From Actinobacteria bacterium UBA7524 (GTDB taxonomy: Bacteria > Actinomycetota > Coriobacteriia > Anaerosomatales > UBA912): a DNA stretch of 64,000 nucleotides. A program made the position numbers. Positions 29,801 to 32,800 of the stretch are shown piece by piece; the stretch's first letter is position 1; each line of letters starts with the position of its first letter. The DNA lies in NCBI GenBank assembly GCA_002478275.1, contig DLMY01000031.1:62001-126000 (forward strand), given 5' to 3'.

Positions 29801-32800
29801 ACCCTCGCGCGGTTGAGCGGGTGCGCGATCGTGCTGACGAGTTTGCGCGCTCCGTCGCGCGGCAGTACCGTGTCCGCATCGAGTGTCAGTACGAAAGTGA
29901 CCGCTCGCAAGAACTCTTCATCGCCGGTGACGTGCGCGAACGAGGTGTCCGAAGACGCCCGCAGCCAGTGATTGAGCTCCATCAGCGATCCGCGCTTGCG
30001 CTCCCATCCCATCCACGAGTTCTCTGCTTCGTTGAAGCGTCGCTCCCGAATGAACAGCGCGAACGGCCGCCTGCCGTGTTCCACCTCGTACCGCTCGTTG
30101 AGTGAGGCTATACCTTCGATAGCGGCCTCGATGATGGCGGCGTCTCCTACTACCCGCTGGTGTTCGGAGGCCCTCAGGTCGCCGAGGAGACCGAAGCCCA
30201 CGTTGTCGTCCCTATTGGCGAGGTACGCGACCTCCAGGTTGTCCAGCACTTTGCGCACCGCTGGAACGGACGTGATGAGCGCGGGAACTATCACGAGGGT
30301 GCGGTGTGACTCCGACAGGGGCTGAAGATAGTCGAGCTTCGGTAGTACCCGCGGTGGGAATACCCATGCAGAAAGCCGGTTGGTCATGCTCAACGCGAGG
30401 TCAGAGAGCGGGATCAGCGCCAGTAGCGCCACTATCGCCAGTGCCCTCGTGCCGGAGCCCTCAAGCAGCAGCCAGGTCGCCAGCATGCCAAGCAGGGCGA
30501 CGGTCAGAACGGCAAGAACACCCCAGTAGAACAGTCCCTTGTTGGCGAGAGGCCCTCGGTATAGCACCTCTCTGAAGTGCGGACGGTAGCGGACCGAGCG
30601 TTCGAACTTGAACCGGCTTGCGCTGATCAGGTAGTGGCCTACGTGCCCTGCCACCTGGTCGCTGGGGTCCGTGATCAGGGCTTGGACACAGTGAGAGATG
30701 ACTGCTTCGGCCACGGTGATCTCATCGAGGGGCGTCCGCCTGGCGAGAGACTCGAGCGCGTGCCGGTACCGGTCGCGGCTCTTGAAGTCCATACGGGGGT
30801 AGACCCCTGATGGGTCCTGCCTCAGGATCTGTTCGACGACACAGGCGGTCTCGAAGAACGTCCGCCATTCGTAGGCGTCGAGGAAGCGGATGGACGTGAT
30901 GGTGTTCGCGATGGATATCTGGTCAGCGGCTTGCGCCTGCTGCAGGTCGTGAGCCAGTTGGTCGAGTGTGATCCCAAGGGCAGACAGCCGCCGCTCCAAC
31001 CACGCCCCGATAGGCTCGACCCCGATGTCTTGTCCGCTCAGGCGCTGAGAGAGCCTCATGAGGAACACCGGAGACGCCTTGGCCACTTCCGATTCCAGGG
31101 CATCGATCAACTCGCGAAGGCTCTCGGTCTGTTCGGGGGCGGCGAGCAAGAGCCTGTCTGCCCAGACATCCGCCCTTCGTCCGGCGACGTGCGCCTCGGC
31201 GACACTCCGAGCCAGCCGGCGTGCGTTCTCGACGAGAGCCACGCGCAACATGATCGGGACCGCCCACACTTCACCGATGGACCATGGGCTCGAGTCCTGG
31301 AAACCGTCGCTGAACTCAAGCAGGTACTCTTCATCGATGCGCGCGTCGGTGTGTGCTATGAGCGTGACCGCGCATGCGTACACTCGGGGCAGTCCGGCGA
31401 ATGGACCCTCGAGCACCCGCGGCAGTTCGCGTCCGTATCCCGACGGCAGATCGGAACGTACCGTTTGCACCTGCTCCTCGATGAGATAGTAGTTGTCGAG
31501 GAGCCATTCGCTCGCCGGCGAGATGGGGTGCTGAAGACGTACCGCTTCGGCTAACAAGGAGTTGTGGCTGCCCATCTCGGCCCCGGCATCGTCGACCATC
31601 TGGCGCAGCGGAGTGTCCCGCGTTGCCGGGGTCGTGCTCCATGTCAGTTGTTCGGCCAGCTCCCGGGCGCGCACTCTGAGACGTTCGGCAGTCAGCAGGG
31701 TGGCGCGGAAGGGGCCCGAATCGGCAACGGTCTGTGTATTCGGCGCCTGGAAGGGCACAGCTCACTCCCCTGATCGGCCGCGTGGGCCGGTCGCTGTTGG
31801 TCGTATCCTTGCTAAGCAAGGTGGCAACGCGATAGGTGTATTATCCACAACGGCGGCGGGGAGAGGACAGGGTACTGGCGACTATATACCCCAGGGGGTA
31901 TACTGAGCGCACATCGGCAAAGAGTCAGGAGTCATGATCTCATGAAGAACCCAGGCAAGATCGCCATATGGGCAGTCATAGGGATAGCGGTGCTGGTCAT
32001 AGGCTTCATGGCATTCTCGCCGGCGGAAGGCACGGTCGAGAATGTCGATGCGAGGAGACTGGCAGACCTCGTCGCTTCCGGCGTGAGGGTGATAGACGTC
32101 CGAACGGAAGGTGAGTACGCGGCCGGGCACATCGCAGGTGCAGAGCTCGTACCGATCGACCGGTTCGCTCAGGCGGCGGCTACATGGGACCGCACTGTGC
32201 CGCTCGCGGTGTACTGTGCGACCGGACAGCGCTCGACGACTGCAGTGAACCACCTGTCCGGCCAGGGATTCGAGAAGGTATATCACTTCAATGCCGGACT
32301 CGTGGCCTGGAGCGGAACACTGGAAAGAGGTGCCACTGCCGCGGCGCCAGCCCCAGAGCCGACAGCCAGTGCGCTGCCGGTCGTCTACGAGTTCTTCACT
32401 GACACTTGACCCGCCTGCGTCCAGGTGAAGCCTGTGGTCGACAGGCTGGTCAAGGAGTATGAGGGCAAGATTGAGTTCAGGCTCCTCAACGCGGGTACCG
32501 ACGCTGAAGCCACTGATCTGATGATGAGATTCGGAGTGACGGCCGTGCCGACGTTCGTGTTCCTCGGCAGTGATGGCGCGAACGAGGGCAAGATCATCGG
32601 GGCGGCGTCCGAGCAGGAACTGCGCGCCAAGCTCGACTCGCTCAAGTGACGTTGGTGTTGGACGCTCGTGCGACGTGGGTATATTCATTACATACCGGGT
32701 CTGAGCCCGGAAGGTACGTTGATAACGGCAAAGGAGTAGACCCGGTGACAGAAGTCGTTTCAGGCCGGGATGGCAGATGAAGGCCTCTGGATCGGCCCAG

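Follow-up and report, generated by a model that had tools for sequence, protein, structure and literature searches.

One reading frame across an in-frame UGA

Two adjacent annotated genes, g00640 and g00641, lie on the forward strand of the window analysed here (a stretch of 64,000 nucleotides from Actinobacteria bacterium UBA7524, order Anaerosomatales). The question that they raise is whether the TGA at 32407-32409 ends a short rhodanese or is read as selenocysteine (Sec) within a longer protein. The first part of the open reading frame (31942-32409), which has an AGGAG 9 nt upstream of its ATG, encodes 155 amino acids and is stopped by this TGA. Beyond it the frame is unbroken up to the TGA at 32647-32649, with no other internal TGA. 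The whole coding sequence (31942..32649, forward strand) then comprises 235 codons and the TGA terminator, and its orthologues span residues ~3-235. We consider it highly probable, from comparative sequence data, that g00640 and g00641 are a single gene for a 235-residue selenoprotein that annotation splits at the UGA, and that this UGA (32407..32409, forward strand) is very probably decoded by the ribosome as Sec156, making the product a genuine selenoprotein. Four lines of evidence lead to this view: retention of the codon throughout the order, a covarying hairpin 3' of it, Cys homologues at the site and loss of the gene together with the Sec machinery.

Domains and location of the protein

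The genome-wide survey's note had described a single read-through protein with a membrane anchor, a rhodanese domain carrying its active-site Cys and a thioredoxin fold with a U-P-A-C motif. Most of this description stood. One frame covers both annotated genes, and the Pfam Thioredoxin match (PF00085, E 3.9e-11, 43.3 bits against a cut-off of 23.5; residues 145-232, 32374..32637, forward strand) spans the UGA. The domain is a minimal beta-alpha-beta-alpha-beta-beta-alpha fold in which helix 1 opens with the CxxC-type motif and a cis-Pro loop is present. Sec156 is the first residue of U-P-A-C and Cys159 (32416-32418, forward strand) the second redox residue; U156-x-x-C159 and the cis-Pro position P203 are both invariant among the aligned orthologues. 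Foldseek matched this domain to thioredoxin m (1fb0, TMt 0.79).

The rhodanese domain (residues 39-124; 32056..32313, forward strand) scored 55.1 bits with PF00581 (E 1.1e-14, cut-off 22.2), and Foldseek matched it to the single-domain rhodaneses 3mzz and 3tp9. Its active-site Cys92 (32215-32217, forward strand) sits in a six-residue loop, C-A-T-G-Q-R-S, conserved among orthologues as C-x-x-G-x-R-S. In an alignment of 61 sequences, Arg97 and Ser98 never vary and Cys92 is conserved to at least 90%; in one orthologue (L038) the Cys is replaced by Tyr. An Ala/Pro-rich linker (residues 125-144; 32314..32373, forward strand) joins the two domains. Its length differs between orthologues, and residues 131-140 have a mean pLDDT of 60. 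The protein comprises a catalytically equipped rhodanese (Cys92), a flexible linker and a minimal thioredoxin fold in which Sec156 is the attacking residue.

The hydrophobic helix at the N-terminus (residues 7-25, after Lys residues; 31960..32016, forward strand; helix 4-24 in the AlphaFold2 (AF2) model) was also as described, whereas the anchor itself is conjectural: the helix may be a signal anchor or instead a cleaved signal peptide, with the remainder of the protein probably outside the cytoplasm. Two orthologues (L029 and L059) have a lipobox at the position of the helix, and these variants, together with the lipoprotein paralogue described below, point to a location outside the cell.

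Conservation of the UGA across the order

Among 80 other genomes of the order, 63 carry the gene, with 66 copies between them, covering 25 families. All 66 have TGA at the site and none has a sense codon, so that, with the copy of this genome, TGA is present in 67/67 copies. The codon is a single one across orthologues, with coding conservation on both sides. In 51/66 copies the terminator is TAG, while the internal TGA is kept in every copy; two of the 66 (G044 and G028) are also broken by a frame change 5' of the UGA. The copy in G017, which might have been taken for a pseudogene, proved to be intact, its two matches sharing one frame with a longer linker. Among the genomes sampled, the rhodanese plus Sec-thioredoxin selenoprotein is seen only in this order.

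These data bear directly on the simplest alternative, that the UGA is a true stop and the product a 155-aa exported rhodanese, the thioredoxin part being untranslated or started at GTG 32425. Public annotation reads the orthologues in this way, as 'rhodanese-like domain-containing protein' of 152-176 aa, and Sec machinery was not found in this metagenome-assembled genome (MAG). However, in 65/66 copies the 79 codons after the UGA are open in the same frame, the remaining copy being cut short by the end of its contig, and they encode a conserved thioredoxin fold. This fold includes the strand that precedes the UGA (PVMYEF-TDW), and a product started at 32425 would have neither this first strand nor the redox residue. 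Nor would a true stop account for the covariation in the hairpin, for homologues with Cys or for the disappearance of the gene with selA, selB and selD, and we regard it as very improbable.

A covarying hairpin downstream of the UGA

Bacterial SECIS elements usually lie within coding sequence and are recognised as a stem-loop that closely follows the UGA and whose apical loop has a conserved G/U. Such a structure, GCCUGU-GGUCG-ACAGGC, is found at 32430..32446 (forward strand), within the codons for K-P-V-V-D-R-L, and its loop residues G31 and U32 are invariant. The survey had given this same hairpin with a spacing of about 22 nt; it starts 20 nt after the A of the UGA. The two fdhA genes of this genome, which have in-frame UGAs of their own, carry hairpins with GGUCU loops, resembling GGUCG here, in agreement with the likeness noted earlier. 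In E. coli fdhF the hairpin spacing is 11 nt, as against 20 nt here, where the stem is only 6 bp. A permissive Rfam scan of 32380-32500 gave no SECIS family, only chance miRNA and sRNA matches (E >= 0.58), and a scan of the window at gathering thresholds gave two tRNAs and nothing else.

Comparative data support the helix. The 81-nt fold around the hairpin has z = -2.93 against shuffles, and RNAalifold predicted the same helix. Of 402 cells, 99.8% are paired, whereas sliding the 3' partner leaves no more than 54.7% paired. Both sides had changed in 37 cells, compared with 9.6 +/- 2.3 in shuffles, and 0/500 shuffles reached 37, although related sequences can beat shuffles even when there is no structure. 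Pair 27-37 is UA in 43 copies, CG in 22, GC in 1 and UG in 1; pair 28-36 is GC in 53, CG in 11, AU in 2 and UA in 1.

Two of the pairs are compensatory at the level of the codons, as Pro-CCU/Arg-AGG versus Pro-CCC/Gly-GGG and as Val/Asp versus Leu/Glu, and such changes force coupled changes of amino acids. Arg appears to give way to Gly only where CCU has also become CCC, and Val/Asp to turn into Leu/Glu as a pair. Both the Arg and the Gly states occur within each of families f8, f19, f21 and f25, which indicates that the switch occurred several times. Where Arg is present it is encoded by AGG in 43/44 copies, a codon that makes up 11.5% of Arg codons genome-wide, and the single CGG copy pairs with CCG. 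To judge from this pattern, the RNA pairing dictates codon choice in the hairpin. The same 17 nt would encode both the SECIS hairpin and the K-P-V-V-D-R-L motif, with pairing setting which substitutions are allowed, a proposal that is better supported than the relay at the cell surface considered below. The hairpin would then be a clean natural case of overlapping RNA-structure and protein constraints.

Cysteine homologues and a lipoprotein paralogue

The survey had stated that the UGA is kept and that no orthologue has Cys in its place. This is correct for the 66 copies of the sampled genomes, but Cys forms do exist among public metagenome proteins: P0003 (55% identical, WCPSC) and P0132 (WCPGC) have Cys at the Sec position. 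In a quick IQ-TREE tree P0003 nests within the Sec clade, with eight distant exported fusions that also carry Cys as the outgroup, in a separate clade (SH-aLRT 100). Of three suspected Cys-type fusion paralogues in the order (in G005, G031 and, as L091, G029), those of G005 and G031 were read and rejected as Sec/Cys partners, being redox-dead lipoproteins with neither the rhodanese Cys nor a CxxC.

The lipoprotein paralogue reported on another contig of this genome was recovered as described. It comprises 147 aa (G000:C30; L002 1411-1854), with an LLVGC lipobox, the motif G-U-PACVTMKPVVDRL and an identical hairpin. Paralogues of this thioredoxin-only lipoprotein type, which have no rhodanese domain, occur in many genomes of the order.

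Stop-codon read-through stimulated by 3' structure is a known phenomenon, and the UGA could in principle be read through without selenium, by near-cognate Trp or Cys insertion or by lineage-specific recoding, with the hairpin as a general stimulator. This we find hardly credible. The site is the nucleophile of a CxxC-type motif, and Cys is the only residue seen there in homologues, the pattern by which Sec/Cys pairs are classically known; the hairpin loop is similar to those of the fdhA genes in this genome; and the gene vanishes along with selA, selB and selD. TGA is also the main stop codon, ending 259/486 long ORFs, and the code of this genome is therefore not one in which TGA is a sense codon.

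Selenocysteine machinery and loss of the gene

No selA, selB or tRNA-Sec was found in this MAG, which is 82.9% complete and in which aragorn found only 27 tRNAs. The best matches to RF01852 were assigned by aragorn to tRNA-Ser, tRNA-Tyr and tRNA-Leu, and the best match to TIGR00475 (C9:71215), which adjoins a tRNA-Tyr/Thr/Met cluster, was taken for EF-Tu rather than SelB. The survey's own caveat, that Sec machinery is missing from these contigs, thus holds for these three genes but not entirely, since the 5' end of a selD with an in-frame UGA lies at the end of contig C37 and the two fdhA genes also have a UGA. Across the order selA was above cut-off in 70/81 genomes, selB in G015 and G030, and selD with a UGA was found in G015, G055 and G030. 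The selA of G017 is fragmented, which may be an assembly error.

Two near-complete genomes, G034 (96% complete) and G007 (99%), have no selA, selB or selD and no copy of the selenoprotein gene, while their relatives G055 and G030 have both Sec genes and the selenoprotein gene. In G007 the neighbouring glucan-synthase gene is retained and the adjacent slot holds an unrelated ORF. This pattern of co-loss comprises two loss events.

Co-loss could also be read as a sign that the same selenoprotein serves selenium acquisition or trafficking, the exported thioredoxin domain reducing selenite or selenotrisulfides at the surface and the rhodanese Cys holding the selenium, as perselenide, for an uptake that feeds SelD. 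Perselenide formation by rhodaneses is published biochemistry. Thioredoxin-dependent selenite reduction is covered in PMC8538045, and the in vivo selenium donor for SelD is unresolved according to a review (PMC13188914, section 7). However, the same co-loss is expected of any selenoprotein once Sec decoding has gone, and the loss events number only two. Cys forms exist (P0003 and P0132), and no selenium-transport gene is found among the conserved neighbours. A selenium-uptake device that itself needs selenium would be awkward, although selD is also a selenoprotein here. A role in selenium acquisition seems to us distinctly unlikely.

Genomic neighbourhood

The divergent neighbour (23443..31758, reverse strand) encodes a 2771-aa cyclic beta-1,2-glucan-synthase-like protein with GT2 and GH94 domains (Pfam), and the N-terminus of this protein adjoins the selenoprotein gene in 57/66 orthologous loci. 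The link between the two is one of synteny only. The conserved neighbours in orthologous loci include no sulfur-metabolism gene and no selenium-transport gene; the glucan synthase is found instead.

Proposed function

As an overall explanation, a Sec-decoded rhodanese-thioredoxin protein acting in an extracytoplasmic sulfane-sulfur relay fits the data best and is probable. Its functional part taken separately, that the protein is an extracytoplasmic reductase or relay for sulfane sulfur (persulfide or thiosulfate), is a tentative assignment. We envisage that Sec would be inserted at UGA 32407-32409 under the direction of the hairpin 20 nt 3' of it, and that the N-terminal helix would set the protein on the outer face of the membrane. 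Cys92 would there accept sulfane sulfur from thiosulfate, polysulfide or persulfide to give Cys-S-SH; Sec156 of the tethered thioredoxin domain would attack this persulfide, with Cys159 resolving the intermediate, so that sulfide leaves and a selenenylsulfide remains. The latter would be re-reduced from the cytoplasm, probably via one of the two CcdA/DsbD-type membrane proteins (DsbD_TM) that the genome encodes. Sec would speed the thiol-exchange step of the relay.

That thioredoxin accepts the persulfide of a rhodanese is established biochemistry for GlpE, for which it is the sulfur acceptor, and for TST; an Arabidopsis study (PMC4618214) reportedly describes an Str-Trx interaction. The AF2 model of the read-through protein has a pTM of 0.60 and a low-confidence linker, and so gives no modelled Cys92-Sec156 contact in support of the relay. 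According to the paper describing the order (PMC9686372), cultured members use H2 or formate with thiosulfate, sulfur or Fe(III), one of them respiring thiosulfate and sulfur, while another is unable to reduce sulfur compounds. Nearly all families of the order carry the gene, and among their members is the one that lacks this ability, which makes a respiratory role improbable.

The same selenoprotein might instead be a general extracytoplasmic thiol-disulfide oxidoreductase, either a reducing or isomerising enzyme that serves exported proteins or the maturation of cytochromes, or else a DsbA/MdbA-type oxidase, with the rhodanese as a binding or regulatory appendage. The W-U-P-x-C motif, with Pro after its first residue, resembles the CPxC motifs of glutaredoxin and DsbA, and PspE can replace DsbA in E. 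coli. The membrane or lipid anchor, the CcdA-type genes and the thioredoxin-only lipoprotein paralogue with the same motif are likewise consistent with such a role. We nevertheless judge it rather unlikely: the conservation of the rhodanese catalytic loop (at least 90% for the Cys, with Arg97 and Ser98 invariant) speaks for a functional sulfurtransferase rather than an inactive appendage, distant exported proteins show the same fusion with Cys, and a separate TlpA/ResA-like gene already adjoins ccdA on C35.

A bolder reading would have the whole order depend on a selenium/sulfur relay at the cell surface, in which the Sec-thioredoxin reduces extracellular selenite, selenotrisulfide or polysulfide and the rhodanese Cys passes the chalcogen on for uptake. 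We regard this as quite doubtful. If correct, there would be a functional reason why the gene is lost along with the Sec trait, and its conserved divergent pairing with the glucan synthase would represent co-regulated envelope chemistry.

Relation to known systems

The closest listed relatives of the thioredoxin part are selenoproteins of the UxxC kind. The thioredoxin selenoprotein of the Treponema denticola type (PF00085, Table 1 of PMC13188914) likewise has a thioredoxin fold with Sec first in UxxC, but the present domain has W-U-P-x-C rather than a WCGPC-type motif, is a minimal fold of ~90 residues, and is exported behind a rhodanese; its score with TIGR01068 (41.8 bits) is below the cut-off of 96.8. 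The thiol:disulfide interchange (PF13098) and thiol-disulfide isomerase-like (cd02966) selenoproteins of the same table share an extracytoplasmic-type thioredoxin fold and UxxC, and PF13098 scores 32.2 bits here (cut-off 27). No rhodanese is listed for either, and it is by the Table 1 descriptions (PMC13188914) that they are set apart.

Conversely, the rhodanese-containing selenoproteins, forms 1-5, including rhodanese_LYCAU (NF041203) and TsoB (NF045694), share a rhodanese domain within a selenoprotein, and TsoB, which is rhodanese/DsbD fusion-like, also joins it to a thiol-disulfide electron-transfer module. These, however, carry Sec in the rhodanese loop or in the DsbD-like part (UxxS, UxxG, CxU, UxxxxU), whereas here the rhodanese keeps its Cys and Sec is in the thioredoxin domain. 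Scores with the NCBIfam selenoprotein models were far below cut-off for the first two and below it for two others (NF041203, 33.1 versus 115; NF045694, 30.7 versus 805; SaoT, NF040730, 25.7 versus 65; PDO_seleno_TRX, TIGR02187, 18.5 versus 185), and NF047660 (HUIPC) gave no match at E <= 0.01.

The eight exported Cys fusions (P0078, P0200, P0227, P0235, P0258, P0264, P0268 and P0269), unnamed metagenome or genome proteins with full-length profile matches, have the same order of signal peptide or lipobox, rhodanese with Cys, linker and thioredoxin. They differ in carrying W-C-x-P-C, and P0078, the only one scored, is 24% identical. Our literature searches found nothing on natural bacterial rhodanese-thioredoxin fusions of this type, these eight included, nothing relevant on selenoproteins in Coriobacteriia and nothing on TsoB beyond the review; in the order-description paper the words 'seleno' and 'rhodanese' are absent.

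Functionally, the nearest parallels are E. coli GlpE and PspE, single-domain rhodaneses working with thioredoxin (compare PMC2593051 and PMC10215317). Both likewise have a six-residue active-site loop and PspE is exported, but there the two activities reside in separate proteins, with Cys rather than Sec, and the NCBIfam GlpE and PspE models scored below cut-off (40.8 and 27.4, each versus 102).

From its sequence, then, the protein appears to be one of the familiar UxxC thioredoxin-fold selenoproteins in a new domain architecture, absent from selenoprotein catalogues. It would add an exported rhodanese plus Sec-thioredoxin, unlisted so far, to the prokaryotic selenoproteome and correct a systematic annotation error by which orthologues are filed as 152-176-aa rhodanese-like stubs. 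Near-universal in an order of subsurface Coriobacteriia, it would mark a conserved selenium-dependent redox or sulfur chemistry of the envelope. For the specialist it is an incremental addition rather than a surprise, since the UxxC thioredoxin fold is the commonest kind of selenoprotein.

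An in-frame UGA lies between a rhodanese domain and the end of a thioredoxin domain

The gene at 31942-32649 (+) begins with an ATG, preceded 9 nt upstream by AGGAG on direct reading of the sequence, and runs for 155 codons to a TGA at 32407-32409 (codon 156); beyond it the same frame stays open for another 79 codons, until the TGA at 32647-32649. Its read-through translation (P0001, with TGA as U) matched the Pfam families Rhodanese over residues 39-124 with 55.1 bits (cut-off 22.2) and Thioredoxin over residues 145-232 with 43.3 bits (cut-off 23.5), the second match running across the UGA. 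Both the coordinates and the domains that the genome-wide survey's note had proposed for a single selenoprotein gene are therefore correct. No NCBIfam model exceeded its cut-off with P0001, the nearest selenoprotein models falling far short (rhodanese_LYCAU, 33.1 vs 115; TsoB, 30.7 vs 805; SaoT, 25.7 vs 65).

An AlphaFold2 model built on 61 aligned sequences (mean pLDDT 92.3) has a helix at the N-terminus (residues 4-24), then the rhodanese fold, a linker that is modelled poorly (131-140; pLDDT 60) and a thioredoxin fold of minimal size; with a pTM of just 0.60, it does not define how the domains are oriented to each other. Taken singly, the domains matched thioredoxin m (1fb0; TMt 0.79) and the rhodaneses 3mzz and 3tp9 in Foldseek, and no Foldseek entry spanned both. 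Arg97, Ser98, Sec156, Cys159 and the cis-Pro position P203 were invariant in the alignment, and the rhodanese Cys92 was present in at least 90% of the aligned rows, with Tyr in one locus (L038).

The UGA is conserved in every orthologous copy

We searched 80 other sampled genomes of the order, from 25 families and 58 genera, in six frames; 63 of them contained the two-domain gene, three in two copies each. We fetched all 66 orthologous loci and inspected the codon: TGA stood at the same position in 66/66, and Cys or another sense codon in none, in agreement with the earlier claim that relatives keep the UGA. With the window copy included, the redox motif was U-P-S-C in 26, U-P-T-C in 17, U-P-A-C in 16 and U-P-V-C in 4 copies, and more rarely U-T-Y-C (2), U-P-E-C (1) or U-A-T-C (1). 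Two copies (genomes G044 and G028) had a frame change 5' of the UGA besides the TGA, which may reflect misassembly or decay. Among further or repeated genomes of the order, 76/92 matched at E <= 1e-25, as against 0/108 sampled from other orders of the class; in this class sample each match covering the codon contained one TGA.

TGA is the commonest ordinary stop in the window's genome (259 of 486 long ORFs, 53%) and is therefore no general sense codon there. The selenoprotein gene itself, by comparison, ends with TAG in 51 of 66 copies (loci L025-L090), with TGA in just 11 and with TAA in 4; one copy runs off its contig. Judged against stop usage in the window's genome alone, this preference may reflect avoidance of a second UGA near the SECIS.

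Orthologues in a set of 5.8 billion proteins are 152-176 aa long, end in ...TDW and are named 'rhodanese-like domain-containing protein'; these entries are truncated at the UGA, and their public names give 'Coriobacteriia bacterium' as the source. The same set held one full-length protein (P0003; 238 aa, 55% identical) with W-C-P-S-C. Further homologues came from a profile search against 1.84 billion representatives: P0132, a lipoprotein with W-C-P-G-C; P0207; and a group of W-C-x-P-C fusions that are exported or are lipoproteins. P0003 was placed as sister to a Sec copy from family f25 (SH-aLRT 99) in a quick IQ-TREE tree, a position suggesting that its Cys is derived from Sec. Eight W-C-x-P-C fusions formed a separate clade (support 100), and P0132 and P0207 lay on long branches with uncertain placement.

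Fusion-like matches without a stop also occur in the order. The two that were read (in G005 and G031) proved to be lipoproteins lacking both the rhodanese Cys and CxxC; such redox-dead paralogues (L092 484-2151 (+) and L093 1336-2376 (-)) join a rhodanese-like domain without the catalytic Cys to a thioredoxin-like domain without CxxC.

A covarying hairpin overlaps the protein code

When the 60 nt that start with the UGA were aligned without gaps across the 67 copies, columns 24-40 (window 32430-32446) formed a helix of 6 bp around a 5-nt loop, in which G31 and U32 are invariant. Standard pairs filled 99.8% of the 402 cells, compared with 24-55% when the 3' partner was slid by 1-3 columns. Pair 27-37 was U-A in 43, C-G in 22, G-C in 1 and U-G in 1 copy, and pair 28-36 was G-C in 53, C-G in 11, A-U in 2 and U-A in 1. 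Both sides had changed in 37 cells (9.6 +/- 2.3 in column shuffles), the observed covariation score was reached by 0/500 shuffles, and RNAalifold independently predicted the same helix.

Because the helix consists of the K-P-V-V-D-R-L codons, its pairing constrains the protein. The combinations seen are Pro-CCU/Arg-AGG, Pro-CCC/Gly-GGG and Pro-CCG/Arg-CGG, and Val-GUG and Asp-GAC change jointly to Leu-CUG and Glu-GAG. Arg at the helix site is encoded by AGG in 43/44 copies; genome-wide, AGG makes up 11.5% of Arg and CCU 14.5% of Pro codons in the window's genome. The Arg and Gly states both occur within each of four families (f8, f19, f21 and f25), and have therefore switched repeatedly, which weakens the objection that the covariation signal reflects relatedness alone.

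Rfam, even in a permissive scan, had no family matching the hairpin. The likeness to fdhA hairpins suggested by the survey was borne out, as GGUCU loops follow the in-frame UGA (…HQARI-U-HSSTVAGL…) in both formate-dehydrogenase alpha genes of the genome (G000:C23:8113-11238 (-) and G000:C9:584-4306 (+)). So was the identity of the hairpin in a thioredoxin-only lipoprotein paralogue of 147 aa (G000:C30:55620-56063; L002 1411-1854), which has an LLVGC lipobox and the motif G-U-PACVTMKPVVDRL, and sits between argS and a homoserine-dehydrogenase-like gene. Comparable thioredoxin-only matches with one TGA were seen in many genomes of the order.

The sequences show a single reading frame, a UGA that is kept, a hairpin whose pairs covary and the catalytic residues of both domains; Sec is very probably inserted at the UGA. 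That the codon is a true stop, as the truncated public entries would have it, or is read through with something other than Sec, is highly improbable even when the two are taken together.

Sec machinery and gene neighbourhood

The MAG is 82.94% complete, in 60 contigs. Neither selA nor tRNA-Sec was found in it (aragorn reported just 27 tRNAs in total), and selB had no match over the cut-off; its best match was taken as EF-Tu because it adjoins a tRNA cluster. The earlier statement that the contigs hold no Sec machinery stands for these three genes and fails for selD, whose 5' end is present (G000:C37:55908-56099; L016 1490-1700) with an in-frame UGA as the active-site residue (...SSKAG-U-AAKWGPGDL...). 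As the contig end cuts this gene, the Sec genes of the MAG have been partly lost through fragmentation.

Across the order, selA exceeded the cut-off in 70/81 genomes. The two near-complete genomes without selA, G034 (96%) and G007 (99%), also lack selB, selD and the rhodanese-thioredoxin gene; G055, a congener of G034, and G030, from the family of G007, have selA, a UGA-containing selD and the gene. These suggest two independent co-losses of the gene with the Sec machinery, although the evidence is not statistical.

Upstream and divergent lies a cyclic beta-1,2-glucan-synthase-like gene of 2771 aa (23443-31758 (-)) with GT2, 'glucoamylase' PF10091, two GH94 supersandwich stretches and a GH94 catalytic domain, in a lineage of Gram-positive type. 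Its N-terminus adjoins the selenoprotein gene in 57/66 orthologous loci. G007 retains it, with an unrelated 360-aa ORF in the divergent slot (G007:C21; L103 2912-3994 (+)). On the opposite flank, the 20 loci that were examined differ, with amtB-glnB, ABC transporters or PAS proteins. No sulfur- or selenium-metabolism gene was a conserved neighbour. A simple scan found no sigma-70-like promoter.

In the window, some 550 nt with no convincing ORF (32650-33197) separate the selenoprotein gene from a tRNA-Ala (33198-33272). This gap ends with a strong 13-bp terminator-like hairpin (33089-33121) and had no Rfam family. Several runs of N, standing for withheld bases, break ORFs past the tRNA (33270-34300) and inside 23443-31758, leaving X stretches in the translations.

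Proposed function and relation to known selenoproteins

Two orthologues carry a lipobox instead of the plain hydrophobic N-terminal helix, and the paralogue made up of thioredoxin alone is a lipoprotein, which suggests an extracytoplasmic location for the rhodanese-thioredoxin protein. The products of two DsbD_TM (CcdA-type) genes in the genome are possible electron conduits.

The most economical reading of function, which we hold tentatively, joins the two known chemistries. A persulfide would form on Cys92, the tethered Sec156 would attack it with Cys159 resolving, and sulfide would leave; the remaining selenenylsulfide would then be re-reduced via CcdA. That the protein is a general thiol-disulfide oxidoreductase seems unlikely, and a part in selenium acquisition more doubtful still.

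A real selenoprotein gene, truncated by public annotation, is well supported. Its best features are its near-universal presence in the order, its co-loss with the Sec machinery and a SECIS in which RNA and protein codes overlap. Searches of the openly accessible literature, supplements aside, yielded nothing relevant on such fusions or on selenoproteins in Coriobacteriia, and the paper describing the order (PMC9686372) mentions neither selenoproteins nor rhodanese. Table 1 of a 2026 review of the prokaryotic selenoproteome (PMC13188914), with its 119 families and subfamilies, also has no entry that joins a rhodanese to a Sec-containing thioredoxin domain. The architecture is a new one of a very common selenoprotein kind, confined to this order among the genomes sampled: the five rhodanese-containing forms of that table have Sec in the rhodanese loop or a DsbD-like part (TsoB), whereas here it falls in the thioredoxin domain.
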